From assembly GCA_041686025.1 (NCBI GenBank), contig JAWLEP010000002.1, positions 25,699 through 40,870 of the forward strand: 15,172 nucleotides of DNA, read 5' to 3'. This DNA is from Candidatus Fermentibacteraceae bacterium. GTDB lineage: Bacteria; Fermentibacterota; Fermentibacteria; Fermentibacterales; JCC-6. Under the pieces are notes generated by a model. It was given only the letters and a program-made list of their open reading frames with translations, was not told the DNA's origin and did not search any database. Every line of letters begins with the position of its first letter. Positions within the stretch are counted from its first letter, which is position 1. Positions 1 to 12,013 of this stretch are shown one piece after another. The translations under genes were made by a program, and so were the position numbers.

Positions 1-2
1 AC

Positions 3-413
3 GAGAGGCCCCGGTACCTGATGGGGGTGGGCAGGCCCGAGGACCTGGTGGACTTCGCGGGCATGGGGGTGGACATGTTCGACTGCGTGGTACCCACCCG
101 CAACGCCAGGGGGGGCAGCTTCTTCGTCCCCGGCGGGCACATCAACATCCGCAACGCCCGCTTCCGCGACGACACCTCACCGGTGCAGCCCGGCTGCCCG
201 TGCTACGCCTGCCGCAACCACAGCAGGGCCTACCTGAGGCACCTGTTCATGAGCCGGGAGTGGATGGCGCCCATACTCACCACCCTCCACAACCTGCAGT
301 ACTTCGCCACGCTGATGCAGGAGATCCGGAGGGCGGTGAGGGAGGACCGGTACGATGACTTCGCCGCGGACTGGCACCGGCGCCGGGCGGGGTTCGACTC
401 CCGCAGCTGGTGA
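3..413 (+). CDS. tgt: tRNA-guanine transglycosylase (queuine tRNA-ribosyltransferase), C-terminal part, truncated by the window edge
   Basis: The frame is open from position 3 (ERPRYLMGVG). It contains YLMGVG.PEDL, GVDMFDCVVPTRNAR, the zinc-binding CPCYAC with a downstream His (LHNL), and SRAYLRHL, all typical of bacterial Tgt. Confidence 0.96.
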   Translation, partial: ERPRYLMGVGRPEDLVDFAGMGVDMFDCVVPTRNARGGSFFVPGGHINIRNARFRDDTSPVQPGCPCYACRNHSRAYLRHLFMSREWMAPILTTLHNLQYFATLMQEIRRAVREDRYDDFAADWHRRRAGFDSRSW

Positions 414-1666
414 TGGGGCCCGAAGAGCTGCTCCTGGAGATCGACTCCCTGGGCAACCGGGTGGGGGGCATATCCCGCCGACGGGGGGAGAAGACGGTCT
501 TCGTACGGGGCGGGCTTCCCGGGGAGCTGGTCCTCTGCAGGCCGGTCTCGGAGAAGAAGAGCTTCGTGGAGGCCGAGCTGCTGGAGGTCCGCCGCCACTC
601 GCCCCGCCGGACCGCCCCCTCCTGTCCCCACTACTCCTGGTGCGGCGGCTGCTCTCTGCAGCACCTGCGGTACGGGCGGCAGCTGCACTGGAAGCGGGAA
701 TGGGTGCGCAACGCGCTTTCCCGCAGGGGAATCGACGGATGCGAGCCCTCGCCCACCGTGGGGAGCCCCGCGGTGACGGGCTACCGCAACAGGGTCACCT
801 TCCAGGTTACCGGCGGAGTCCCGGGGCTGCACGCCTTCCGGGGAGACCCCCGTCCTGTGGACGCCTGCCCCCTGCTTTCGGAGAGGGGCAACGCCATCCT
901 GGGGGAGCTGGCCGGGACCGACCTGGGCGCCTTCGACAGGGTGGCGGTCCGCAGCTCCACCGGGACCGTCTCGGACAGCGTCGAGCTCTATGGGGCCGGT
1001 GAGGGGGAGCCGGAGCTGCAGCTGCCGGAGGCGGTCTCCCTGGCCTGGGAGCGGGACGGGAGGTGGAGAAGCCGCGGCCCCGGGCTGAGGGAGCGGCTGG
1101 CCGGAGTGGAGCTGGAGGTCCCCCCCGGGGGATTTCTGCAGGTGAACACGGGGGCTGCGGAGCTGCTGGTGTCCATGGTGGCCGGGATGTGCGGTCAGGG
1201 CCCCGTCCTCGACCTCTACGCCGGCGTGGGCACCATGGGCCTCTCCCTGGCGGCCGGGGGCAGGCAGGTGCTCTGCGTGGAGCGCAGCAGCAGGGCCGTC
1301 CGCTGCGGGCGCAGGGCCGCCGGCAGGCAGGGCATCGACACGGTGGAGTTCCGCGCCTCCCGGGCCAGGAGCTTCCTGGTGGAGGCCGTGCGGGGGAGGA
1401 CGACCTTCGGGACGGTGGTGGCCGACCCACCCAGGGCCGGCCTGGGCACCCGGGTGGCCAGGCTGCTTCGGCGGCTGCGGGCACCCCGGGTGATCATGGT
1501 GGGCTGCGACCCCTTCGCCATGGCCAGGGACCTGGATATCCTCCTGGGAGGCGGGTACCGGCTGGACAGGGTGCAGCCTCTGGACCTCTTCCCCCAGACC
1601 GACCATGTTGAGACCGTTGCGCTGCTGCTGCTGAACAGGAGTGAGACACCCACCGAAGGGTCTTGA
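410..1666 (+). CDS. rlmD: RlmD/TrmA-family RNA (uracil-5)-methyltransferase with TRAM domain and 4Fe-4S motif
   Basis: N-terminal TRAM-like segment (VFVRGGLPGE), CPHYSWCGGC plus a later Cys (DACP), FLQVN, SAM motif LDLYAGVG, DPPRAG, catalytic-Cys motif VGCDP and DLFPQTDHVE. Start overlaps the tgt stop (GTG 410 or ATG 413). Exact RNA substrate cannot be determined from sequence. Confidence 0.88.
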   Translation: MMGPEELLLEIDSLGNRVGGISRRRGEKTVFVRGGLPGELVLCRPVSEKKSFVEAELLEVRRHSPRRTAPSCPHYSWCGGCSLQHLRYGRQLHWKREWVRNALSRRGIDGCEPSPTVGSPAVTGYRNRVTFQVTGGVPGLHAFRGDPRPVDACPLLSERGNAILGELAGTDLGAFDRVAVRSSTGTVSDSVELYGAGEGEPELQLPEAVSLAWERDGRWRSRGPGLRERLAGVELEVPPGGFLQVNTGAAELLVSMVAGMCGQGPVLDLYAGVGTMGLSLAAGGRQVLCVERSSRAVRCGRRAAGRQGIDTVEFRASRARSFLVEAVRGRTTFGTVVADPPRAGLGTRVARLLRRLRAPRVIMVGCDPFAMARDLDILLGGGYRLDRVQPLDLFPQTDHVETVALLLLNRSETPTEGS

Positions 1667-1680
1667 GGAGGGCGAGTTCA

Positions 1681-3096
1681 ATGAACAGGTCTGTCCAGAT
1701 GACGATAACCCTTGTGTCCGCGGCGATACTGGCGGCCGGGGCTGCCGCGGAGCTGCCCCTCAGCGACCCGCTGTGGAACTGGATGCGGCCGGCTGCCACC
1801 CTGGGGGGAGTACCGCTGTCGAGCATCATGCCTCTCTGCGGTCTGCCCGCCGCCGGTAGCGGGGCATGGGCGCCCCTGCTCGACAGGGCCGGTCGTCTCG
1901 GCGGGGAGGGACGGCATTCCCTGGCCGAGGGTGACTGGATAGGCATCGACGGCCGCGTCGTTCTGGAGGGCGCAGAGGACGATGGTGGCCAGTACCGGGT
2001 GGGCACCGCCCTCCGGCTGGTGGCCGATCTCACGGACAATCTGTCCGTTCACGAGCGGATGTCGGTCTGGGCGGGCGGAGACGAGCGCCCCCCCCACCAC
2101 TTCTCGCGCTACCATATCGGCGAGGAGGAGGGCCGGCACCTCTACGCCGACTGGGGATACATAGCCTATACGCCGGGCACGATCGGCCTGTCAGTGGGCC
2201 GTATCCCCCAGACCTGGGGACCAGGCCGGTACAACAACCTCCTGCTCTCGAGCAACAGCCCGGGGCTGGACATGATGCAGTTCTCGACCTCCCCTGCTGA
2301 ATGGCTTGCGTTCACGGGACTGACCGCAAGCGTGAACACCGACTCGGCTTCCTACCTCTCCATGCACCGGCTGGACATCCGGCCGGCAGCCTCTCTGCGA
2401 ATCGGCCTCAGCGAGGCCATACTCTACTGCTCCGACGGCCTGGAGCTGGCCTACATGAACCCCTTCATCCCCTACTATCCGGTGCAGTGGAACGAGCGAG
2501 ACGACGACAACGCCTTCCTCTGCTTCGACGCGGAGTGGTCCCCCACGCCCGGCCTCTCGGTCTACGGCGAGCTGCTGGTGGACGACTTCCAGTACCAGAC
2601 CACGTACGACCGCCCCAACAAGCTGGCCTGGACGGTGGGAGCCGAGACGGCCACCCCCCCCGGGGGCGCCTGGGCGAACCTGGAGTACACCAGAATCGAC
2701 AGGTACGTCTACAGCCAGCTGCTCAGCCGCAACTACTACCTCCATGATGGGAGGATCATCGGCTCCCCACTCGGGCCGGACACCGACTGCCTGACCCTGG
2801 GCGCCGGCTGGGCCGGGCTTTGGCCGCTGGCCGCCCGGACCACGTTGGACCACATCCGCAACGGCGAGGGCGACATCTACGACGGCTGGCCGGATACGGT
2901 AACCAGCGGGGAGCCCTTCCCTTCCGGAACCGTCGAGCATCTGACCAGAGCCGGCCTGCATCTCTCCGCCTACCCCGCGGGGTCCATGGAGCTCCACGGG
3001 GGCATCTCCCACGACTGGATACGCAATGCCGGCCATCAGCAGGGCGCAGAGGACAGCCAGACGAAGGCGTGGGCCCAGGCGGTATGGAACTGGTAG
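1681..3096 (+). CDS. Capsule assembly Wzi-family-like outer-membrane beta-barrel protein
   Basis: GGAGG at 1667-1671 precedes ATG 1681, followed by a signal peptide. Motifs GRIPQTWGPG..NLLLSSN, HRLDI, IGLSEAILY, YGELLVDD, LEYTRI..YVY and IGSPLGPD resemble Wzi-family proteins. The C-terminal aromatic residue (AVWNW) is typical of BAM substrates. Confidence 0.75.
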   Translation: MNRSVQMTITLVSAAILAAGAAAELPLSDPLWNWMRPAATLGGVPLSSIMPLCGLPAAGSGAWAPLLDRAGRLGGEGRHSLAEGDWIGIDGRVVLEGAEDDGGQYRVGTALRLVADLTDNLSVHERMSVWAGGDERPPHHFSRYHIGEEEGRHLYADWGYIAYTPGTIGLSVGRIPQTWGPGRYNNLLLSSNSPGLDMMQFSTSPAEWLAFTGLTASVNTDSASYLSMHRLDIRPAASLRIGLSEAILYCSDGLELAYMNPFIPYYPVQWNERDDDNAFLCFDAEWSPTPGLSVYGELLVDDFQYQTTYDRPNKLAWTVGAETATPPGGAWANLEYTRIDRYVYSQLLSRNYYLHDGRIIGSPLGPDTDCLTLGAGWAGLWPLAARTTLDHIRNGEGDIYDGWPDTVTSGEPFPSGTVEHLTRAGLHLSAYPAGSMELHGGISHDWIRNAGHQQGAEDSQTKAWAQAVWNW

Positions 3097-3105
3097 CCCC
3101 GCGGG

Positions 3106-3131
3106 TGTAACCTTCCGGGGACCGATCCGTC
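3106..3131 (+). promoter_or_regulatory. Putative ECF sigma-factor promoter (TGTAAC-N16-CGTC)
   Basis: TGTAAC at 3106-3111, a 16-nt spacer and CGTC at 3128-3131 match the AAC...CGT ECF pattern (SigW/SigM/SigX-like). It lies in the 3097-3183 intergenic gap upstream of a DUF4097 gene. Confidence 0.6.
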
Positions 3132-3183
3132 TTAGGGTACGAAGGCGGAAAGAGGTTGCGGGCACCATCGAGAGGATTCCGAG

Positions 3184-3969
3184 ATGAGAGCAGTACTGGT
3201 TACGGCGGCAGCCCTGGCGGCCCTGGGATGCTCCCGGCAGGCGGCGGTCGTGGAGGAGAGCATGCCCTTACAGGTGGGCTCCCGGGTGGACATGTACACC
3301 TTCAACGGCGACATCACGGTGGAGTGGCACCAGGGCACGGAGATGGACCTCAGCTACCAGAAGACCACCTGGCGGGGCGAGGGGGAGCTGGACAAGGTGG
3401 AGGTCACCGTGGCAGAGGAGGGCGACGCCACCATCATCAGGGCGGAGAAGCTGGAGGAGAGCGCCCAGGTGGGCGTGGACCTGGATGTCAGGCTGCCAGA
3501 GGGGGTAAACCTGGGTCGGGTGGAGACCTCCAACGGCAACGTCATCGTAACCGGGGGCAGCGGCGACGCCATCGTGGACACCTCCAACGGCGACATAGTG
3601 TTCCGCGGCTTCAGCGGCAGCGTCAGGGGGGACACCTCCAACGGCGACATAGTGGTTCTGGGCGGAACGCTTCGCTCGGCGGACACCTCCAACGGGGAGA
3701 TCGAGGCCGAGATCCGCTCCCTGCAGGGCTCGCGGACGATACTGGACACCTCCAACGGCAACATCGACGTCTACCTCGGCCCCCAGCTGGACGTGAAGGT
3801 CATCATGGACACCTCCAACGGCTCGGTGTCCGTGTCCGGGCTTCCGGGAGCCGACGTCCGGATAGAGGACTCCGAGGGCACCGCCACCCTGAACGAGGGC
3901 ACCCACGAGCTGGTGCTGGACACCTCCAACGGGGATGTCCGCGTCTACGGCCTCGACGACGTGGAGTAG
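3184..3969 (+). CDS. DUF4097-family beta-strand-repeat lipoprotein
   Basis: RBS GAGAGGA upstream; lipobox MRAVLVTAAALAALG-C. Seven (D/E)TSNG(D/N/E/S)(I/V) repeats plus a TFNGDI variant. Confidence 0.85.
   Translation: MRAVLVTAAALAALGCSRQAAVVEESMPLQVGSRVDMYTFNGDITVEWHQGTEMDLSYQKTTWRGEGELDKVEVTVAEEGDATIIRAEKLEESAQVGVDLDVRLPEGVNLGRVETSNGNVIVTGGSGDAIVDTSNGDIVFRGFSGSVRGDTSNGDIVVLGGTLRSADTSNGEIEAEIRSLQGSRTILDTSNGNIDVYLGPQLDVKVIMDTSNGSVSVSGLPGADVRIEDSEGTATLNEGTHELVLDTSNGDVRVYGLDDVE
3523..3933 (+). repeat. Intragenic coding repeats (GA[C/G]ACCTCCAACGG, encoding [D/E]TSNG)
   Basis: Copies begin at 3523, 3577, 3631, 3682, 3745, 3808 and 3919. All are in frame with the DUF4097 CDS, with spacings that are multiples of 3. 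Confidence 0.9.
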
Positions 3970-3971
3970 GC

Positions 3972-4397
3972 TTGCACCGGAATGCCGCCGCCGGTCTCGG
4001 GCTGGCGCTGACACTGGCCGCCGCCGTCTGCTGCGGCTCCGCCCACAGCCCGCCCCGCAGCGGACTGTCGCTGCAGAACGCCGTGGACATAGCGGTCGGC
4101 GAGGTGGTGGGATCGGACAGCCTCGACAGGACCCTTCTGGCCCTGGGCCACCCCCTGGACCCCGGAGACAGCCTCTTTCCGCAGATGATGGACGATGCAG
4201 CCGGCTACCGCGTGGACCGCAGGTCCTGGCTGCTCTTCCTGGACGACATGAGCTCCTACCGCTGGGCCCATCCGTGCCGCTGGATCCTGGTGGACGCCGC
4301 CACCGGGGAGGTCCGGGTCATACGGGAGAGCTGGTGGCCCGCGCGCCGGGACATGATGGACACGGTGAGGGTCTGGACCCGGCCGGCCGAGGGGTGA
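3972..4397 (+). CDS. Hypothetical exported protein, possibly a lipoprotein
   Basis: TTG at 3972 is preceded by GGAG (3963-3966), just after the DUF4097 stop. The N-terminus MHRNAAAGLGLALTLAAAVCC is signal-like. A globular W-rich segment follows (WLLFLDD...WAHPCRWILVDAATGE). This is the 3' part of the track ORF 3156..4397. Confidence 0.7.
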   Translation: MHRNAAAGLGLALTLAAAVCCGSAHSPPRSGLSLQNAVDIAVGEVVGSDSLDRTLLALGHPLDPGDSLFPQMMDDAAGYRVDRRSWLLFLDDMSSYRWAHPCRWILVDAATGEVRVIRESWWPARRDMMDTVRVWTRPAEG

Positions 4398-5548: not shown

Positions 5549-6751
5549 TCAGTCTGCCAGAACGCTGTCTATGGCCGCCCGGATCTCTTCGGCGGCGTTG
5601 CCCCCGGCGCCCCGGGCCCGGTAGAGGACCCTCCCCTCGGGGTCTATCAGGTAGAGGGTGGGAATGCCGGTGACCAGGTAGTCGGCGGCCACGCTGTCCC
5701 CCTCCAGCGCCAGGGTGTAGGTGAAGCCGCTGTCGGCCATCATGGCCCCCGGGTCGCCCTGCTCCCAGACGTTCACGCCCACCACCTTCACCGCCCGGTC
5801 GGCGTAGTCCTCGTGGATCGCCTGCAGCTCCGGCATCACCATAAGGCAGGGGGCGCACCAGGTGGCCCAGAAGTCCATCACCACCAGGGTATCCTCCAGG
5901 GCCGCCAGGCTGAGGGTGTCACCCGAGGGGGTGGGCAGGGCCCATTCCGGCGCTTCGCTGCCCACCGGAAGGAAGGCCATGTGCTCGGTGACGGTCCAGC
6001 CCTCCGGGGCGAACAGGCGCATCTCTTCGGGCGTTATCTCCACGCCCGTCTCCAGGTGAGAGAGGATGGTGGAGATGGTGAGCTCCTGCCCGTCGCGGCT
6101 CATGACCCGGTCCACCCTGCGGGGCAGGTAGTCGTCCGAGGCGAACCACCACAGCGCCCGCTGTCCGCCGGGGTAGGCCACCTCCACCTTGTGGCACTCC
6201 ACGTCCCCCACCTGCTCGGTGCCCAGGTCGCGCACCGCTTCGGAGGCCAGCTCGTCGGAGAAGGGGTCGTCGTAGATGAGCTCTCCCAGCAGGGCCGGCC
6301 CCAGGGCGCCCAGCAGCTGGTCGGCCCCGTTCTCCACAGCGCCGTAGTTGAGCGTTCGCGATGCGTAGTCCAGGAGGAATACCGAATCGGGGCCGGCGGC
6401 CACCACCAGGCTGTCCACGCCCTCCTGCGTCTCGGCGGTCAGGGTGGCCCGCAGGGCCGTGATCTCTCCCCCGGAACCCTCCAGGGCTACCCGACCGCTG
6501 AGGGAGGGCAGGCCGGCGGCCGGCGCGCCGGAGGCCTCCATTCGGATGTCGTAGGCGGCGGAGCCCACCGCCTCTGCCGCGGAGTCCGCCATGGCCAGGA
6601 CCCGCAGCGCCGAGCTGTCCGGTCCGGCGGGTGGGGCCATGGACGTTGTGTCATCCGGCGCCCGTTCTGCGGGCTCACCCCCGCCCCCTCCGCAGGATGC
6701 GGGGATTAGCAGAGCGGCGGCGGAGAGAATCGCGACTATGGTGGCCTTCAT
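5549..6751 (-). CDS. Lipoprotein with N-terminal LolA/DUF2092-like domain and C-terminal TlpA-family thiol-disulfide redoxin
   Basis: SD GGGAGG and lipoprotein signal (IPAS-C). The middle region has LGTEQVGDVECHKVEV...WWFASDDYLPRRV, a LolA-like fold signature. The C-terminus has APEWAL, VVMDFWATWCAPC and GIPTLYLIDPEGRV. Confidence 0.85.
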   Translation of the reverse strand: MKATIVAILSAAALLIPASCGGGGGEPAERAPDDTTSMAPPAGPDSSALRVLAMADSAAEAVGSAAYDIRMEASGAPAAGLPSLSGRVALEGSGGEITALRATLTAETQEGVDSLVVAAGPDSVFLLDYASRTLNYGAVENGADQLLGALGPALLGELIYDDPFSDELASEAVRDLGTEQVGDVECHKVEVAYPGGQRALWWFASDDYLPRRVDRVMSRDGQELTISTILSHLETGVEITPEEMRLFAPEGWTVTEHMAFLPVGSEAPEWALPTPSGDTLSLAALEDTLVVMDFWATWCAPCLMVMPELQAIHEDYADRAVKVVGVNVWEQGDPGAMMADSGFTYTLALEGDSVAADYLVTGIPTLYLIDPEGRVLYRARGAGGNAAEEIRAAIDSVLAD

Positions 6752-6802
6752 GACAGCCTCCCGGGTTGGTGATCAACAGCAAAGGCTCTGAAGGCCACCA
6801 TA
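6737..6802. repeat. 14-bp perfect inverted repeat with an extended imperfect hairpin over the redoxin translation start
   Basis: TATGGTGGCCTTCA (6737-6750) pairs with TGAAGGCCACCATA (6789-6802). Inner pairs are AGCCT 6755-6759 / AGGCT 6783-6787 and GTTG 6765-6768 / CAAC 6774-6777. Confidence 0.9.
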
Positions 6803-6825
6803 AGCCGCGCCGGGGCATTCGGCAA
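6797..6825 (-). promoter_or_regulatory. Putative sigma-70 promoter for the redoxin gene (TTGCCG-N17-TATGGT)
   Basis: On the minus strand, -35 TTGCCG (6825-6820), a 17-nt spacer and -10 TATGGT (6802-6797). Confidence 0.5.
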
Positions 6826-6835
6826 ACGCAGTCGG

Positions 6836-7456
6836 TCAGAAGAGGGCCTTTATCCCTCCCCAGGTCTCGCTCTGCAGCGAGAGGTCCACCGGCGAGCCGT
6901 GGGCCCGGATCAGGTAGTCGTTGGCCGTCGGCCCCTGGAGTATCCAGGGCTCCCAGACTTCGAAATCGTCGGAGTAGAAGCTGTGGTTGGCCGAGTTCGG
7001 CGAGTCGTCGGAGAGCAGGGCCGGCCAGCCCCCGGAGGACAGCTCGCTGTTCTGCAGTATCCAGAAGTCCGGGTCAGCCAGTATGCTGTCGGCCGGGAAG
7101 ACGATGACGCCGGTCATGTGCGCCGCGGTGACGGTGGTGTCGTACAGCAGCTCCTCCGGGCCGGACTGGGCCCCGTTGTATACCTCCAGGATGAACTGGT
7201 CGGTGTCCCAGGGGTAGCTGCCCGAATGGTAGAACCAGAGCTCCGCCCCCCCCAGCATGAACTGGCAGGGCTCTGAGTAGAAGTCGGCGGTGTGGAACCA
7301 GGTGCCCCTGTAGAGGCCGCCCCAGGTCATCCACCAGGCGGTGCCGTCGTCGTACTGCAGCACGTCGTCGGTGGCCGGAGCTGCAGCCGGCTGGATCATC
7401 TCCCCGCCGGCGCCGGCCGAGGCGGTCAGTGCCATCAGAATCGCAAGAACGCTCAT
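6836..7456 (-). CDS. Hypothetical secreted acidic protein with C-terminal TWGGIKALF motif (paralog 2)
   Basis: Hydrophobic N-terminus and RBS GAAGGGAG. Shares YDDGTAWWMTWGG.YRGTWFHTADFY, LYDTTVTA, SSGGWP, HSF.SDD, WEPW and DYLIRAHG with the neighbouring gene. Confidence 0.85.
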   Translation of the reverse strand: MSVLAILMALTASAGAGGEMIQPAAAPATDDVLQYDDGTAWWMTWGGLYRGTWFHTADFYSEPCQFMLGGAELWFYHSGSYPWDTDQFILEVYNGAQSGPEELLYDTTVTAAHMTGVIVFPADSILADPDFWILQNSELSSGGWPALLSDDSPNSANHSFYSDDFEVWEPWILQGPTANDYLIRAHGSPVDLSLQSETWGGIKALF

Positions 7457-7480
7457 CTGTCTCTCCCTTCCCGGGTGTCC

Positions 7481-8086
7481 TCAGTGATACAGGGCCTCTA
7501 TTCCGCCCCAGGTGACGGACTCCAGGCCCAGGCCCACGGGCTCCCCGTGGGCGCGGATCAGGTAGTCGCAGGCCGTCTCGACCTCCACGATCCAGGGCTC
7601 CCATGCCTCGCCGTCGTCGGAGAGGAAGCTGTGGTCGGTGGAGTTGGGGGAGTTGTCGCCCGGGCTGGAGGGCCAGCCCCCCGATGAGAACTCCGTGTTG
7701 ACCACCAGCCAGAAGTGGGCCGCCGTCTGCAGGCTGTCCGGGAGCTCTACCGTCACTGCAGTGTAGTGCTCGGCAGTTACAGTTGTGTCGTACAGCATCT
7801 CGGTGGGCCCGTTCTGGCCACCGTTGCAGACCTCGGCCACGAACTGGTCGGCCACCCACCAGCTCGCAGGATGGTAGAACCAGAACTCAGCCGCCTCCGC
7901 GACGAATTCGCAGGACTCGGGGTAGAAATCGGCCGTATGGAACCATGTACCCCTGTATTGCCCGCCCCAGGTCATCCACCAGGCGGTTCCGTCATCGTAT
8001 GCCAGCACGTCGTCCCCTGCAGGCATTGCCTGGCCGGCAGGCTCGCCCGCCGGTGTCAGCGCCAGCATGATGAACAACAAGGTCAT
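7481..8086 (-). CDS. Hypothetical secreted acidic protein with C-terminal TWGGIEALYH motif (paralog 1)
   Basis: Hydrophobic N-terminus and RBS GAAGGGG. Collinear similarity to 6836..7456 over the whole mature region. Confidence 0.85.
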   Translation of the reverse strand: MTLLFIMLALTPAGEPAGQAMPAGDDVLAYDDGTAWWMTWGGQYRGTWFHTADFYPESCEFVAEAAEFWFYHPASWWVADQFVAEVCNGGQNGPTEMLYDTTVTAEHYTAVTVELPDSLQTAAHFWLVVNTEFSSGGWPSSPGDNSPNSTDHSFLSDDGEAWEPWIVEVETACDYLIRAHGEPVGLGLESVTWGGIEALYH

Positions 8087-8126
8087 CTCTCGCCCCTTCC
8101 CGCTCTATCGCTACACCACAACAAGG

Positions 8127-8143
8127 AGCAAGGCGCTTGCCAA
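8127..8143 (-). promoter_or_regulatory. Sigma-54 (-24/-12) promoter
   Basis: Minus strand reads TTGGCAAGCGCCTTGCT: GG-N10-GC spacing and a close match to YTGGCACGNNNNTTGCW. It lies 40 nt upstream of the ATG at 8086 and is divergent from a sigma-54 activator gene. Confidence 0.85.
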
Positions 8144-8210
8144 AGGCCTATATAGTTGCCATACAGTGAGATACATTGTATATGCATGTTTGGGTACGGA
8201 CGCCGTACCA

Positions 8211-8260
8211 GGGAAATTATCCCGTTTCCGTATATATTCCCTAGACTGGGGGTATTTCCC
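8211..8260. promoter_or_regulatory. Candidate upstream activator sequences (three related 13-mers ending in TCCC)
   Basis: GGGAAATTATCCC (8211-8223), CGTATATATTCCC (8229-8241) and GGGGGTATTTCCC (8248-8260), spaced 18-19 bp apart. They lie about 95-145 bp upstream of the inferred sigma-54 start site. Confidence 0.55.
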
Positions 8261-8289
8261 TTGCCATCCGGCGGCCGCAGGGTTATCCT
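8261..8289 (+). promoter_or_regulatory. Putative sigma-70 promoter of the activator gene (TTGCCA-N17-TATCCT)
   Basis: -35 TTGCCA at 8261-8266, a 17-nt spacer and -10 TATCCT at 8284-8289, followed by SD GGGGGAGG and ATG 8306. Confidence 0.6.
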
Positions 8290-8305
8290 ATTGGGGGAGG
8301 GAGCC

Positions 8306-11300
8306 ATGGAAACACCCGACGGCATCGTTTCGCGCACCCATCTTCCCGGGGACGTAACCCAGGTGGTCTTCCGCAGCGGCGACGGCCTGCGCCTCGGCCG
8401 CATCTACCCGGTATCTCCGCAGCCGGGGGCCATCTCCGCCCTCCTTGCCTGGCTGCGGGGACGCAGGTCTGAGGACGTGGCGTTTCCCGACGACTTCCGG
8501 CTTCTCGACGGCGGCAGGGTCTGCCTCTCACTGCCCCTGCGGTCGGAGCCGCGAAGGCCCGTGGGGCCGGTTCCGGCATCGCTGCTGGTGGACCGGCTGG
8601 AGTCCCTTCGCCGCAGCGGCCTGGGATGTCTGGTGCTGGACCGGGGCTCGCTGCTGGAGATCGACGGCCGGCTGAAGCTGGTGGCCTGGGGCGGCGGCAT
8701 CCTCGGCCTGGGGGGCGTGCAGGCCCCGGAGGTTGCCGAGGGCGGCTATGCCGGGGACTGGTCCACCGCCTGGGCCCTGGGGCATCTCATCCGGGGGGCC
8801 CCCCGCCTGCTGGAGCACGGCCTGGGGGACACCCGTCTGAGGGCCCTGCTCTCTCCCGTCCCTTCCCGGAGGGCCAGGGCCGCCGTGAAGCTGGGCCTGG
8901 CCGCCTGGCCCATGCCCGAGGGATGCGACCGGCTCACCGGCCCGGGGCTCGGCGTGGTCTGCGGGGGGCCCTGGCGCATGAGGGCCTGCGCGGTGAACGA
9001 CCTGGCCGGACTGGCGGTGTCCCGGGGCATGCGGGTGCGCGTTGTCAGGTGCTCCTCCCGGGAATCCCACCGTCCGCTTCCGGACGTGGAGCCGGGAGGG
9101 GGTCCCATACTGAACCCCGGGGACCTGCTCCGCCGCCTCTTCGGACCCGCCAGCGACATGGACCGGCTTCTGGTATTCGACGATGCCCACAGGGCGTCCC
9201 CCGACCTGGCCGCCATGCTGAGAAGGCTGGCCATGCTGCCGCCCCCCGGCCTGAGGCTGGTGATCGCCGCGCCGGAGCCGCCCGAGTTCGTTCCCCCTGC
9301 CCAGCGGACTGTGAGGCTGGAGGGGGAGGCCGGCGAGGCGGACGATCTCCCGCTGCAGCAGTGGAGGGGTGAGCTTGAAGGGTGCGGGCAGCCGGAGCCC
9401 TCCTGGTACGGCCCCAGGATCAGGTGCCCGGGAAGGGCGGCGGGGGACGCGGCGTCACCGGAGGCCGCCCGGCTCCACGCCATGGGGGCGGACAGGGTGG
9501 CCGCCTCCCTGGCCCCCTCCCTCTCCCCCGACGACGGGGACGCCCTGCCGGTGGCCGCCAGCCTCATCAGGCTGGGCCGCTGGCGGGAGGCGCTGCGGCT
9601 GCTGCCGGAGCACGCCGCCCTCCTGCGGGGCCAGGCGCTGCTGGGGCTGGGCAAGGCCTCCGAGGCGGTCCCGCTGCTGCGAAGGGCTTTCGAGGAGGAA
9701 CCCGGCGACCGGTCCCGGTGCCTCCTGGCCCGTGCCCTGGTGGCCGCCGGCTCTCCGGCGGAGGCGGAGGAGCTGCTCCGCCACGGCCGGTCGGCCGGGT
9801 CCGCCGTAGCCCTGGCCGACCTGCTGGACTCCCTGGGAAGGCCGGCCGAGGCCATCGGGCCCCTGCGGAGGGTGGCTGATGAGGGCCCCGAGGCCACCCC
9901 GGAGGTCCTCTGCGCCCAGGCCAGGATCTACATGCGCCTGGGCAGGTACGCCGAAGCCCTGGAGAGGACCGACAGGGCAGTGGCCATCGCCGGCTCCCTG
10001 GGCGAGGGCCAGGCGCTGGTGGAGGGCCTCCTCACCAGGGGCAGGACCCGGGAGGTGCTGGGGGACTGGAAGGAGGCCCTGGGGGACTACCGGATGGCCG
10101 TCTCCCTCTTCGACGCCTCCTCCTCCGCCGCCGAGAGGCCGCCGCACGTGGACCTGTACGTGCTTCTCCTCCGCACCGGCCGACCGGGAGAGGCCGACGG
10201 CATATGGGACCGGATGCTGGCCGCCATGCGGACCTCCGGAGCAGCGGCCCCCAGAATGGAGCAGATGCTGCTTGCCTACAGGGCCGTTCTGCTGGGAAGG
10301 GGCGAGGAGGGCCTCCCCTTCGCCAGGAGGGCGGCGGAGATGGCGGCGGCAGAGGGCAACCCCCTGCACCAGGCCCTGAGCGCCATGTACGCGGGGGTGC
10401 TCACCGTGCAGGCCGGCCGGACCGGGGAGGGGCTGGACACGATACGAAGGGCCAGGGCAAGGGCCGGGATGCTGGGAGACCGGCACCTGCAGCTCATGTG
10501 CGACCTGGAGCTGCTGGCCGCCGGTGACGGGGGGCCCGGCGAGGACCTGCGGCTGGCGGCCGGGGAGCTGGGACTGGTGCCGGAGGAGCTGCGGGCCGCC
10601 GTGCTGCAGCACGGCGAGACAGAGGCCCTGGAGTCGCTTCTGGAGCTCCCGGCGCCCCTGGAGGCCCTGGCGGCGGCCCGGTGCCTGACGTCCCTCCCCC
10701 CAGCCCTGGCCGCCAGGCTCCGGCAGACGCTGTCCTCGCTCTTCGAAACCCTGCCGGAGGGTGAGGCGGAGAGCCTGGCGGAGCTGTGCCGGGACCTTCC
10801 GGGCGGCCCGGGCGGCACCGAGGCGGACGGGGCTGCCGTGCTCCGGGAGCTGTCCGGATGGGCCCGCCGCCGGCTGGCGGAGGGAGCGCCCCTGCAGGAG
10901 CTGGCGGACTCCCTGGGCATAGGCTGCCTGGACACCGCCCCCTCGGAGGGCTGCAGCGTGCGACTGTGCTGGGAGCCTCCCCTGTACTCCAGCTCCCCGG
11001 TGCCCGGGCTGGAGGACGCCGCGGCGCTGGTGGCCGCTCTGGCCAGCGCCACGGTGGAGGAGCCGGGGGCGGCTCCGGGGGATGGGGACTACCCCGAGCT
11101 GGTGGGGGCCTCCAGGACCATGAAGGAGCTGCGGCGGACCCTGGACCGGGCCATCGGCAGCTCGGTGCCCGTGCTCCTGCTGGGGGAGACGGGCACCGGA
11201 AAGGAGCTGGCTGCCCGGGCCATCCACCGGGGCCGGGACACCGAGGGCCCCTTCGTCCCCCTGGACTGCGGCGCCATTCCCCCCGAGCTGCTGGAATCGG

Positions 11301-12013
11301 AGCTGTTCGGGGCCAGGAGCGGGGCCTACACCGGTCTGAGGGAGGACCGAAAGGGGCTGATCGAGGAGGCCAGGGCAGGTACCCTGTTCCTGGACGAGAT
11401 AGGCAACCTCACCGGTGCGCTGCAGGTCAAGCTTCTGCGGGCCCTGGACACCGGCAGGTTCCGCAGGCTGGGGGAGAACCGGGAGAGGGAGTCGTCCTTC
11501 GGTCTGGTGGCGGCCACCAACCGCGACCTCCGCCGGGCGGTGGCCCGGGGCGACTTCCGGGACGACCTCTACTACCGGATAGCCGTGATGGTGATAGAGC
11601 TGCCTCCCCTGCGCGAGAGGAGGGGGGACATACCGCTTCTGGCCAGGTACTTCCTGCGCCGGGAGGTGGCCGGCGAGCCCGTTGAGATAACCGCCGGGGC
11701 CCTGCGGAAGCTGGAGGAGCACGGATGGCCCGGAAACGTCAGGGAGCTGCGGAACGTCATTCAGAGGGCCCTGGCCCTGTCCGGCGACAGAGACATCCAC
11801 AGCCGGCACATCCACCTCTCCGAGCTGAGGCCTCGGGGGACGGAGGGGAGGATGGAGACCATACGCACCGCCACCGCCAGGCATGTTCGGCGCGTGGTGG
11901 AGGAGATGGGGGGAAACCGCACCCGGGCGGCGGGGGTGCTGGACTGCGACCCCAAGACGGTGCGCAAGTACCTGCGAATAGCGGAGAGGGAGCTGGATCA
12001 GCGGGAGAGGTAG
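8306..12013 (+). CDS. Large sigma-54-dependent transcriptional activator (bEBP): pseudokinase-like, degenerate P-loop, TPR, AAA+ and Fis-type HTH
   Basis: A strong SD precedes ATG 8306. The C-terminal region has GETGTGKE, PFVPLDCGAIP..LLESELFG..GAYTGL, GTLFLDEIG, LQVKLLR, AATNRDL, FRDDLYYRI, LPPLRER, WPGNVREL and HTH GGNRTRAAGVL. The middle is Ala/Leu helical TPR-like repeats. Confidence 0.92.
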   Translation: METPDGIVSRTHLPGDVTQVVFRSGDGLRLGRIYPVSPQPGAISALLAWLRGRRSEDVAFPDDFRLLDGGRVCLSLPLRSEPRRPVGPVPASLLVDRLESLRRSGLGCLVLDRGSLLEIDGRLKLVAWGGGILGLGGVQAPEVAEGGYAGDWSTAWALGHLIRGAPRLLEHGLGDTRLRALLSPVPSRRARAAVKLGLAAWPMPEGCDRLTGPGLGVVCGGPWRMRACAVNDLAGLAVSRGMRVRVVRCSSRESHRPLPDVEPGGGPILNPGDLLRRLFGPASDMDRLLVFDDAHRASPDLAAMLRRLAMLPPPGLRLVIAAPEPPEFVPPAQRTVRLEGEAGEADDLPLQQWRGELEGCGQPEPSWYGPRIRCPGRAAGDAASPEAARLHAMGADRVAASLAPSLSPDDGDALPVAASLIRLGRWREALRLLPEHAALLRGQALLGLGKASEAVPLLRRAFEEEPGDRSRCLLARALVAAGSPAEAEELLRHGRSAGSAVALADLLDSLGRPAEAIGPLRRVADEGPEATPEVLCAQARIYMRLGRYAEALERTDRAVAIAGSLGEGQALVEGLLTRGRTREVLGDWKEALGDYRMAVSLFDASSSAAERPPHVDLYVLLLRTGRPGEADGIWDRMLAAMRTSGAAAPRMEQMLLAYRAVLLGRGEEGLPFARRAAEMAAAEGNPLHQALSAMYAGVLTVQAGRTGEGLDTIRRARARAGMLGDRHLQLMCDLELLAAGDGGPGEDLRLAAGELGLVPEELRAAVLQHGETEALESLLELPAPLEALAAARCLTSLPPALAARLRQTLSSLFETLPEGEAESLAELCRDLPGGPGGTEADGAAVLRELSGWARRRLAEGAPLQELADSLGIGCLDTAPSEGCSVRLCWEPPLYSSSPVPGLEDAAALVAALASATVEEPGAAPGDGDYPELVGASRTMKELRRTLDRAIGSSVPVLLLGETGTGKELAARAIHRGRDTEGPFVPLDCGAIPPELLESELFGARSGAYTGLREDRKGLIEEARAGTLFLDEIGNLTGALQVKLLRALDTGRFRRLGENRERESSFGLVAATNRDLRRAVARGDFRDDLYYRIAVMVIELPPLRERRGDIPLLARYFLRREVAGEPVEITAGALRKLEEHGWPGNVRELRNVIQRALALSGDRDIHSRHIHLSELRPRGTEGRMETIRTATARHVRRVVEEMGGNRTRAAGVLDCDPKTVRKYLRIAERELDQRER

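Follow-up and report, generated by a model that had tools for sequence, protein, structure and literature searches.

A predicted one-component sigma-54 circuit pairing a giant pseudokinase/P-loop/TPR activator with tandem exported TWG-tail proteins in Fermentibacterota

Introduction

That bacterial enhancer-binding proteins (bEBPs) are encoded beside their targets is textbook knowledge. The NifA, NorR, RtcR, PrdR and PspF types (PF00158) combine an AAA+ core with a helix-turn-helix (HTH) and serve -24/-12 promoters from palindromic upstream sites 70-110 bp away. Here we describe a locus with the same parts in a 15,172-nucleotide stretch of contig JAWLEP010000002.1 (positions 25,699 to 40,870; hereafter the window) from Candidatus Fermentibacteraceae bacterium, phylum Fermentibacterota. 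It differs from these types in that its activator has a 900-residue input half that is predicted to consist of a pseudokinase, a dead P-loop domain and a TPR array, rather than a receiver, GAF, PAS or CARF domain; its loop 1 is non-consensus, and its predicted exported targets are undescribed.

Three further systems bear comparison. MalT, the STAND activator of Escherichia coli, has the layout predicted here, a P-loop-derived domain followed by a TPR superhelix (1hz4, Z 23.6 to our model) and fused to a DNA-binding output. The window activator, however, lacks the Walker A lysine, its model is largely devoid of the helical plus winged-helix part, and its output is a sigma-54 AAA+-HTH module, whereas that of MalT is a LuxR-type HTH. 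The database architecture Pkinase-AAA_16-TPR-GAF-Sigma54_activat-HTH, found in Myxococcota and others, has the domain order predicted here, but the window activator is shorter (1235 aa), both of its predicted enzyme domains are dead and it has no Pfam GAF match. Finally, in the PEP-CTERM/PrsR system a sigma-54 activator reportedly controls genes for proteins with a C-terminal sorting tag. The window system resembles it in tying such an activator to tagged exported proteins, and differs in its one-component cytoplasmic sensor, one-operon regulon and tail without a membrane anchor. A link between sigma-54 and the cell exterior is a known theme, as set out in the available part of PMC3162934. Our literature search, which left subscription journals mostly uncovered and did not include supplements, where tabulations may exist, found no paper on the activator family, its architecture or the TWG tail; the accessible portions of PMC12316311, PMC13581612 and PMC7159879 describe neither a kinase-STAND-TPR activator family nor the tail.

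Results

The activator gene is divergent from two small paralogous genes, and a 219-bp gap (8087-8305) separates it from the first of these. The elements of the locus are as follows.

8306..12013, + strand: sigma-54 enhancer-binding protein gene, 1235 aa; ATG start preceded by a GGGAG ribosome site
7481..8086, - strand: target gene 1, 201 aa; YDDG family, hydrophobic N-terminus, tail TWGGIEALYH
6836..7456, - strand: target gene 2, 206 aa; separated from gene 1 by 24 bp; predicted fold a lectin-like beta-sandwich, followed by a short TWG helix at the C-terminus
8127..8143, - strand: -24/-12 sigma-54 promoter, TTGGCAAGCGCCTTGCT (8143-8127), GG-N10-GC; predicted start ~8116
8143..8210, no strand: AT-richer spacer from enhancer to promoter; 55% AT in the 60 bp before the promoter
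8211..8223, no strand: main palindromic activator site (upstream activator site, UAS), predicted; centre 75 bp from the promoter
8229..8241, no strand: second site copy, degenerate, 3 mismatches; its offset, -93, is the commonest in orthologs
8248..8260, no strand: third site copy, 2 mismatches; abuts the -35 box of the activator's promoter; predicted autorepression site
8261..8289, + strand: sigma-70-like promoter of the activator gene, TTGCCA-17-TATCCT

A first-pass annotation, made from the sequence without database searches, had proposed a bEBP of about 1235 aa divergent from two paralogs, with a -24/-12 promoter, an AT-rich spacer, three repeats and a sigma-70 promoter in the gap. The open reading frames (ORFs) and the gap were confirmed, the paralogs are 60% identical, and all four gap elements are present: the repeats are spaced 18-19 bp apart, and the 55% AT before the promoter compares with 25-39% in 500-bp bins of the window. 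The sigma-70 promoter held up in part. Its hexamers are there, and most of 36 orthologous loci have a similar site ~35-60 bp ahead of the activator start (judged by eye, without shuffle control), but scored alone it is near chance, with 1 found versus 0.5 expected. The genome also carries rpoN, whose absence had been named beforehand as refuting the proposal, as one gene matching over the curated cut-off. A short palindrome (8194-8209; GGTACGG-ACG-CCGTACC region) lies beside the main site and is not conserved in the same-genus locus.

With the window left out, a matrix trained on 26 orthologous loci ranked 8210-8224 first in the 2.7-Mb genome (18.5 bits), and the gap held the sole strong site-plus-promoter pair genome-wide. 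A wider regulon in this genome was considered and rejected, since no promoter accompanies the other high-scoring palindromes, which are in or close to unrelated genes.

We compared the locus across 70 genomes of the phylum (G and L numbers label genomes and loci, G000 being the window's genome; g2, g6, g7 and g8 are groups of genomes). The activator family occurs in 34 of these, including 17/19 in g7, 5/26 in g2 and 0/8 in g8. Thirty-six loci from 32 of the 34 genomes were analyzed (G046 and G028, having no 5' end, were left out), scoring the target family when it lay on the divergent strand within 3.2 kb and the palindrome when it lay 65-100 bp before the -24/-12 element, with 100 shuffles per locus. 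The target family was divergent from the activator in 28/36 loci, the palindrome GGGAAnWnTTCCC accompanied a -24/-12 promoter in 29/36 (shuffle expectation 0.01), and both were present in 26/36. Thus, the linkage and the promoter that the first-pass annotation had expected among orthologous loci are conserved, the latter with an enhancer-like palindrome. Site centres cluster at -71 to -75, -82 to -85 and -91 to -95, in steps of about one helical turn, and in six g7 loci a site copy overlaps the predicted -10 box of the activator promoter. When a matrix from the 24 loci of one family was applied to 12 held-out loci, the top site fell in the upstream gap in all 12, against priors of 3-9% each. 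Searching the 70 whole genomes with the composite site-plus-promoter pattern gave 29 matches in 23 genomes and none in the reversed control; 22 were at activator loci, one in G009 before an unlinked target, three in G020 and three inside coding genes. Four genomes (G043, G045, G053 and G054) encode two activator paralogs each, from two clades (L034/L041, L039/L046, L037/L061 and L038/L063, respectively), with spacings of -84 versus -72/-93, different first targets and the same site.

The family appears to be confined to this phylum. The 150 best profile matches among 1.84 billion representatives comprised 14 near-full-length members, ~13 fragments and otherwise the TPR region only, with no full-length relative outside this small family. 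The HTH pattern was found at 29 loci in 185,579 species genomes, five of which were read in sequence and the others recognized by their records; the 29 include a remnant and a hit in a phage-like gene outside the family, and the named records with the signature are Fermentibacteria, Sabulitectum or Hyd24-12. We rejected a match in an alphaproteobacterial contig, since the small protein is phage-like and its gene precedes a terminase-like one.

Where targets have been relocated or replaced, the activator retains its site, indicating that the site follows the HTH. In G009, an activator without a divergent target keeps two sites, and the module precedes an unlinked target-family gene (L069 1648-2265, G009:C102) that groups with the linked targets of its relatives (SH-aLRT 86); this gene would be regulated in trans by the activator. 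G020 has no target-family gene and encodes a 416-aa activator-family member without the sensor half (L094 9108-12859, G020:C21), which nests within the family (100/99). It precedes three tandem cassettes, each comprising a site pair, a sigma-54 promoter and a gene from another family whose 121-125-aa exported product ends near YPQKYW, and it may serve as a natural constitutive-type control. In G026 and G033 (L134, L136 and L142), two kinds of secreted gene follow the site and promoter, namely propeller-like genes, which lie just downstream of the activator, and a C25-like gene (both labels assigned by eye, not by domain scan); in the HTH helix of these activators Asn takes the place of Arg, and the DNA site is slightly different. 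A loose site pattern run on five genomes gave 18 matches, of which 3 were intergenic before secreted genes, 2 at a known locus and 13 chance-like (control 2). At L047 and L054 the target is gone and the site still precedes the activator. In eight g7, g6 and g2 loci, read fully or partly, the first divergent gene encodes a 572-aa protein, and the type IX secretion system (T9SS) C-terminal domain (TIGR04183) scored over cut-off in two of three alternative targets scanned, namely this protein and a 461-aa co-target. The targets thus seem interchangeable, yet they are always predicted exported proteins. Two activator genes (G005:C1 1995088-1997625 and G042:C1 308106-310794) are split over several frames, through frameshifts or sequencing errors, with promoter and target kept. 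An HTH-coding remnant without an activator ORF (L170 6874-6936) precedes a C25-like gene, which in L153 follows an intact activator.

The activator is predicted to comprise, in order, a pseudokinase, a dead STAND-type P-loop domain, a TPR superhelix, a small alpha/beta linker, AAA+ and HTH:

8306..8890, + strand: predicted pseudokinase domain, residues ~1-195; catalytic-loop Asp replaced by Val, DFG Asp by Trp
8933..9340, + strand: putative degenerate STAND/AAA_16-type P-loop domain, residues ~210-345; GGxWxxRD-type motif in place of Walker A
9458..10795, + strand: TPR superhelix, MalT domain III-like, predicted sensor, residues ~385-830
11099..11815, + strand: sigma-54 activator AAA+ domain and lid; PF00158 E 3.9e-58, PF25601; loop 1 GAYTGL
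11858..11980, + strand: helix-turn-helix; family signature CDPKTxRKY

Pfam matched TPR families and the sigma-54 AAA+ domain, the latter at 196 bits versus a cut-off of 20.2, and nothing in residues 1-430. The best NCBIfam rows for the AAA+ core were NifA, RtcR, PrdR and NorR (E 2e-80 to 1e-74, all below their own cut-offs). Motifs were counted in an alignment of 28 orthologs, with denominators of 26-28 where members are incomplete. Walker A (28/28), Walker B (27/27), the R-finger (26/26) and sensor II (26/26) of the AAA+ domain are all kept; the loop-1 Thr is invariant (28/28), and Tyr replaces Phe in 20/28. HrpS works with GAYTGA, and loss of the Thr abolishes activity, according to the available part of PMC3105312; loop-1 variants were also accepted in a Clostridiales regulon study, as stated in the part at hand of PMC6615313. 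The CDPKT helix is present in 23/28 orthologs, the remaining sequences being cut short. A hydropathy scan of 28 family members found no membrane segment (0/28 with a 19-residue window of at least 1.9).

The structure model of residues 1-914 (pLDDT 87.5, pTM 0.72) shows, in order, an N-terminal domain of mixed structure, an alpha/beta domain with five strands, an extended array of helices and, just before the AAA+ region, a small alpha/beta unit of 75 residues (839-913). Pfam gave no GAF match in 27 family members, a search in which the 839-913 unit was not taken alone. Orthologs outside the window's clade are only 24-35% identical. Among 27 sequences, 42 columns are invariant and are spread over all three N-terminal domains; they include G221/R226 in the former P-loop, and R578-G579-R580 and D725-H727-L728 in the TPR array.

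The kinase-like and P-loop-like parts named by the first-pass annotation are best read as dead relics. Residues 91-164 align with a Hanks kinase of G010 across the catalytic loop, DFG, APE and subdomain IX (hhalign probability 57%, pairwise E 1e-4; reversed control 0.74), matches to kinases in the PDB were weak (E 0.11-0.97), and an Atlas comparison of residues 1-400 pointed to Pkinase+AAA_16 clusters (score 0.86), which is no more than a lead. An active Hanks-type Ser/Thr kinase would need the beta-3 Lys, the HRD Asp together with its downstream Asn, and the DFG Asp, and these are not all in place: the DFG position is Trp in 27/28 orthologs and Phe in 1/28, and the catalytic Asp, kept in 16/28, is Val in the window. 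Over their full length, residues 210-342 can be aligned with 16 AAA_16 proteins from the phylum (global hhalign pairwise E 0.0012, reversed 0.52), and the modeled domain has the beta-alpha order of the core topology and a Walker B-like strand. The Walker A motif GxxGxGK[ST] of an active STAND NTPase is absent (0/28), the aligned column reading GGxWxxRD, and only ~45 residues separate the P-loop core from the TPR array; the STAND helical and winged-helix part is largely missing from the model. The TPR model matches MalT domain III (1hz4, VIA-align) over 320 aligned residues at a root-mean-square deviation (rmsd) of 4.1, and TPR_MalT is matched in 7/27 family members; the eukaryotic TPR proteins APC5 and APPBP2, at Z 24.6, tie with 1hz4, and the peptide sensors Rap, NprR and AimR score lower (Z 17-20). 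Large AAA_16/STAND-TPR proteins are expanded in G000 and 20 relatives, each genome having 2-16 matches; judged by eye, the N-terminal parts of several look GGDEF-like or cyclase-like.

Neither window target matched Pfam or NCBIfam at E<=0.1, and their family gave no Pfam match in 67 members and no sequence match in the PDB. It is present in 1-12 copies in 55/70 genomes, with six matches in the window's genome, and in the Atlas target 1 falls in clusters whose commonest phylum is Fermentibacterota; DUF7451, the third Atlas row for target 1, was rejected as an identity since it has no match in the genome. In the family tree the two window targets cluster with G035's linked target (SH-aLRT 92), separated from three unlinked paralogs in the window's genome (99). 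As claimed at the outset, the targets are predicted to be secreted: by a crude test, without a signal-peptide predictor, 35/37 aligned members have a hydrophobic N-terminus, compared with 1/37 elsewhere in the chain. The TWG tail is found in both window proteins, as first noted, but orthologous loci do not always encode TWG proteins, and the tail of target 1 (7481-7510, - strand) has Glu where 36/37 aligned members, including its closest relatives, have Lys; this is possibly a weakened tag or a sequencing error. About 20 ORFs of several families end in a TWG tail in the window's genome, and only the window operon carries the module. The circuit is accordingly "dedicated," as it had been called, in that one of 20 TWG-tail genes has the module, but the tail itself is a genome-wide tag. 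Similarly, the sensor/output pairing is conserved in most loci, whereas activators of other genomes precede other exported-protein genes.

The model of target 2 (pLDDT 88.5) is an all-beta sandwich with a low-confidence tail helix. It matches Cwp84's lectin-like domain (4ci7) best, at Z 13.9 (rmsd 3.1, 154 of 188 residues aligned, 8% identity), which we take as the same fold, phage baseplate and capsid jelly rolls at Z 10-12, and carbohydrate-binding modules (CBMs) at ~7; a viral fold library returned generic jelly-roll matches only. Compared with Cwp84 and the CBM32/F-type jelly-roll modules, whose fold it is predicted to share, the target stands alone, has no sequence-level match and carries a predicted signal peptide and a TWG tail. 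No fused form of the domain was seen among 7999 longer candidates, which is weak evidence. The phylum is described as diderm in the available part of PMC5030696, and the window's genome has SprA and 76 T9SS C-terminal-domain matches; TIGR04183 is absent from both window targets, which are thus not type A T9SS cargo.

Discussion

The locus is probably a one-component, likely autorepressed sigma-54 switch that drives the target genes and has a sensor lock released by an inducer. We hold the link from activator through promoter to targets to be very probable; given that link, the inducer-released lock is a reasonable, somewhat favored account of the sensor half. The C-terminal HTH likely binds GGGAAnWnTTCCC, and the activator likely opens the divergent -24/-12 promoter, driving two predicted exported, lectin-fold TWG-tail genes. 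By analogy with bEBPs and MalT, activators on tandem sites would occupy one face of the helix, the DNA would loop over the AT-rich spacer and the AAA+ ring would remodel sigma-54. The dead kinase and dead P-loop domain may form a non-catalytic lock on the AAA+ domain, to be released when a cytoplasmic inducer, either a small molecule or a peptide, binds to the MalT-like TPR superhelix. Autorepression would come from the site that overlaps the sigma-70 promoter of the activator itself. The gene products are likely surface binding proteins that carry a TWG tag or a type IX secretion C-terminal domain for their export.

Several observations weigh against this account. The target family occurs in 21 genomes where the activator was not found, including 8/8 of g8. 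By the rule used, the module is missing from seven of the 36 loci (L034, L047, L049, L054, L056, L057 and L064); among these, L049 and L064 have a target and a perfect site but lack a promoter at the expected spacing, and L034 combines two weak sites with the absence of a target. Eight loci have no target family nearby, two of them on short contig ends. The motif was first noticed by eye in these loci, so the held-out loci were not blind, and the genomes are kin. In the 27 spacers, the IHF consensus was no more frequent than in shuffles (0-1 mismatches in 3 versus 2.7 expected), and an IHF site in the window's spacer was rejected despite three HU/IHF-family genes in the genome. Exact GAFTGA is found in 6/28 orthologs and loop 1 is non-consensus in the other 22, GAYTGL in the window, with its last position varying among L, I, S and V. 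The P-loop assignment is weak (hhalign probability only 7.6%), and the fold search of the modeled sensor half left the kinase and P-loop parts unmatched, its lists filled by TPR proteins. The G020 member lacks the entire sensor. A lectin-like fold alone gives no function, and the Cwp84 domain itself is without a demonstrated ligand in the part of PMC4089489 available. Two metatranscriptome contig sets, with small shares, yielded short scattered pieces and no start site.

Four other explanations were weighed. The first, which is unlikely though the most serious of them, keeps promoter and site but has the N-terminal 900 residues controlled by a partner protein (an anti-activator, kinase or protease) or acting positively as an oligomerization unit. 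Pseudokinases and TPR arrays are common protein-binding surfaces, loss of the Walker A lysine in 28/28 means that MalT-type nucleotide exchange cannot apply, and the genome has an intact Hanks-type kinase and nine AAA_16 matches; yet the 36 loci, whose upstream side was read by eye, show no conserved partner gene next to the activator, and the sensor-less G020 member keeps three target cassettes, an observation more in keeping with a negative domain that can be removed than with a positive one that is essential. We find it quite improbable that the sensor half is a vestige, leaving a constitutive activator whose output is set solely by abundance and autorepression. Two dead enzyme domains, dropped altogether in G020, the low ortholog identity and the seemingly frameshifted G005 and G042 loci would agree with decay, but the 42 invariant columns over all three domains and the well-ordered model (pLDDT 87.5) would not.

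A still poorer fit is a protein that only binds the palindrome, as a repressor or sigma-54-independent regulator, while another activator serves the -24/-12 promoter. The six strong sigma-54 activator-domain matches in the genome do include five activator-like genes besides the window's, loop 1 is mostly non-consensus and the site overlaps the activator's own promoter. On the other side, the family retains the Thr and every ATPase motif, GAFTGA is exact in six orthologs, the site-promoter spacing is enhancer-like and phased, and no second conserved motif was noticed in the gaps, where no systematic search was made. A chance neighborhood of a regulator and a common multi-copy family (1-12 copies in 55/70 genomes) is hardly credible, being refuted by the composite-pattern, shuffle and held-out tests unless the loci are misassembled, and contradicted by linkage at 28/36 loci, by the module on one of 20 TWG genes and by its move with the target in G009.

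A more speculative extension of the inducer-released switch, which we consider improbable, is that this NLR-like sensor with both enzymes dead acts as a feedback monitor of the cell surface: its TPR array might bind TWG tails or export cargo released or stalled in the cytoplasm, and a sigma-54-driven lectin-like coat would follow. The array also resembles the peptide sensors Rap, NprR and AimR. If true, it would tie the TWG sorting tag to a regulator and give a first handle on the TWG pathway.

Judged by comparison of loci, the regulon appears real and well supported. What is new is a phylum-restricted activator family with two predicted dead enzyme domains and no Pfam GAF match, its predicted binding site with natural controls, and its lectin-fold output. 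The locus offers a complete, nearly one-operon candidate circuit (activator, site, promoter and targets) for the giant kinase-STAND-TPR sigma-54 activators, a class for which we found no study, from a phylum without a cultured member. One 219-bp fragment and one gene hold everything needed for a test in E. coli, and a sensor-less member, a relocated target and swapped targets supply the natural controls. The family suggests that a sensor of STAND descent can outlast the loss of its nucleotide switch, and the circuit may offer an inducible promoter for studying TWG-tagged exported proteins.

A 3-methyladenine DNA glycosylase gene (PF02245; 11998-12636, - strand) is convergent with the activator and overlaps its 3' end by 16 bp. 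The TlpA-like thioredoxin lipoprotein gene at 5549-6751 was rejected as a member of the unit, its adjacency recurring only in the same-genus locus among the loci listed; before it, 6752-6835 (- strand) holds a possible sigma-70-like promoter of its own, TTGCCG-17-TATGGT, seen by eye and absent from the promoter-scan output. Farther upstream (window 1-4000), tgt-like, RNA methyltransferase, Wzi-like and DUF4097 genes keep the same order in L047, L049, L050, L053-L055 and L059, from two other families, and this conserved order suggests that the window position is the ancestral site of the activator.

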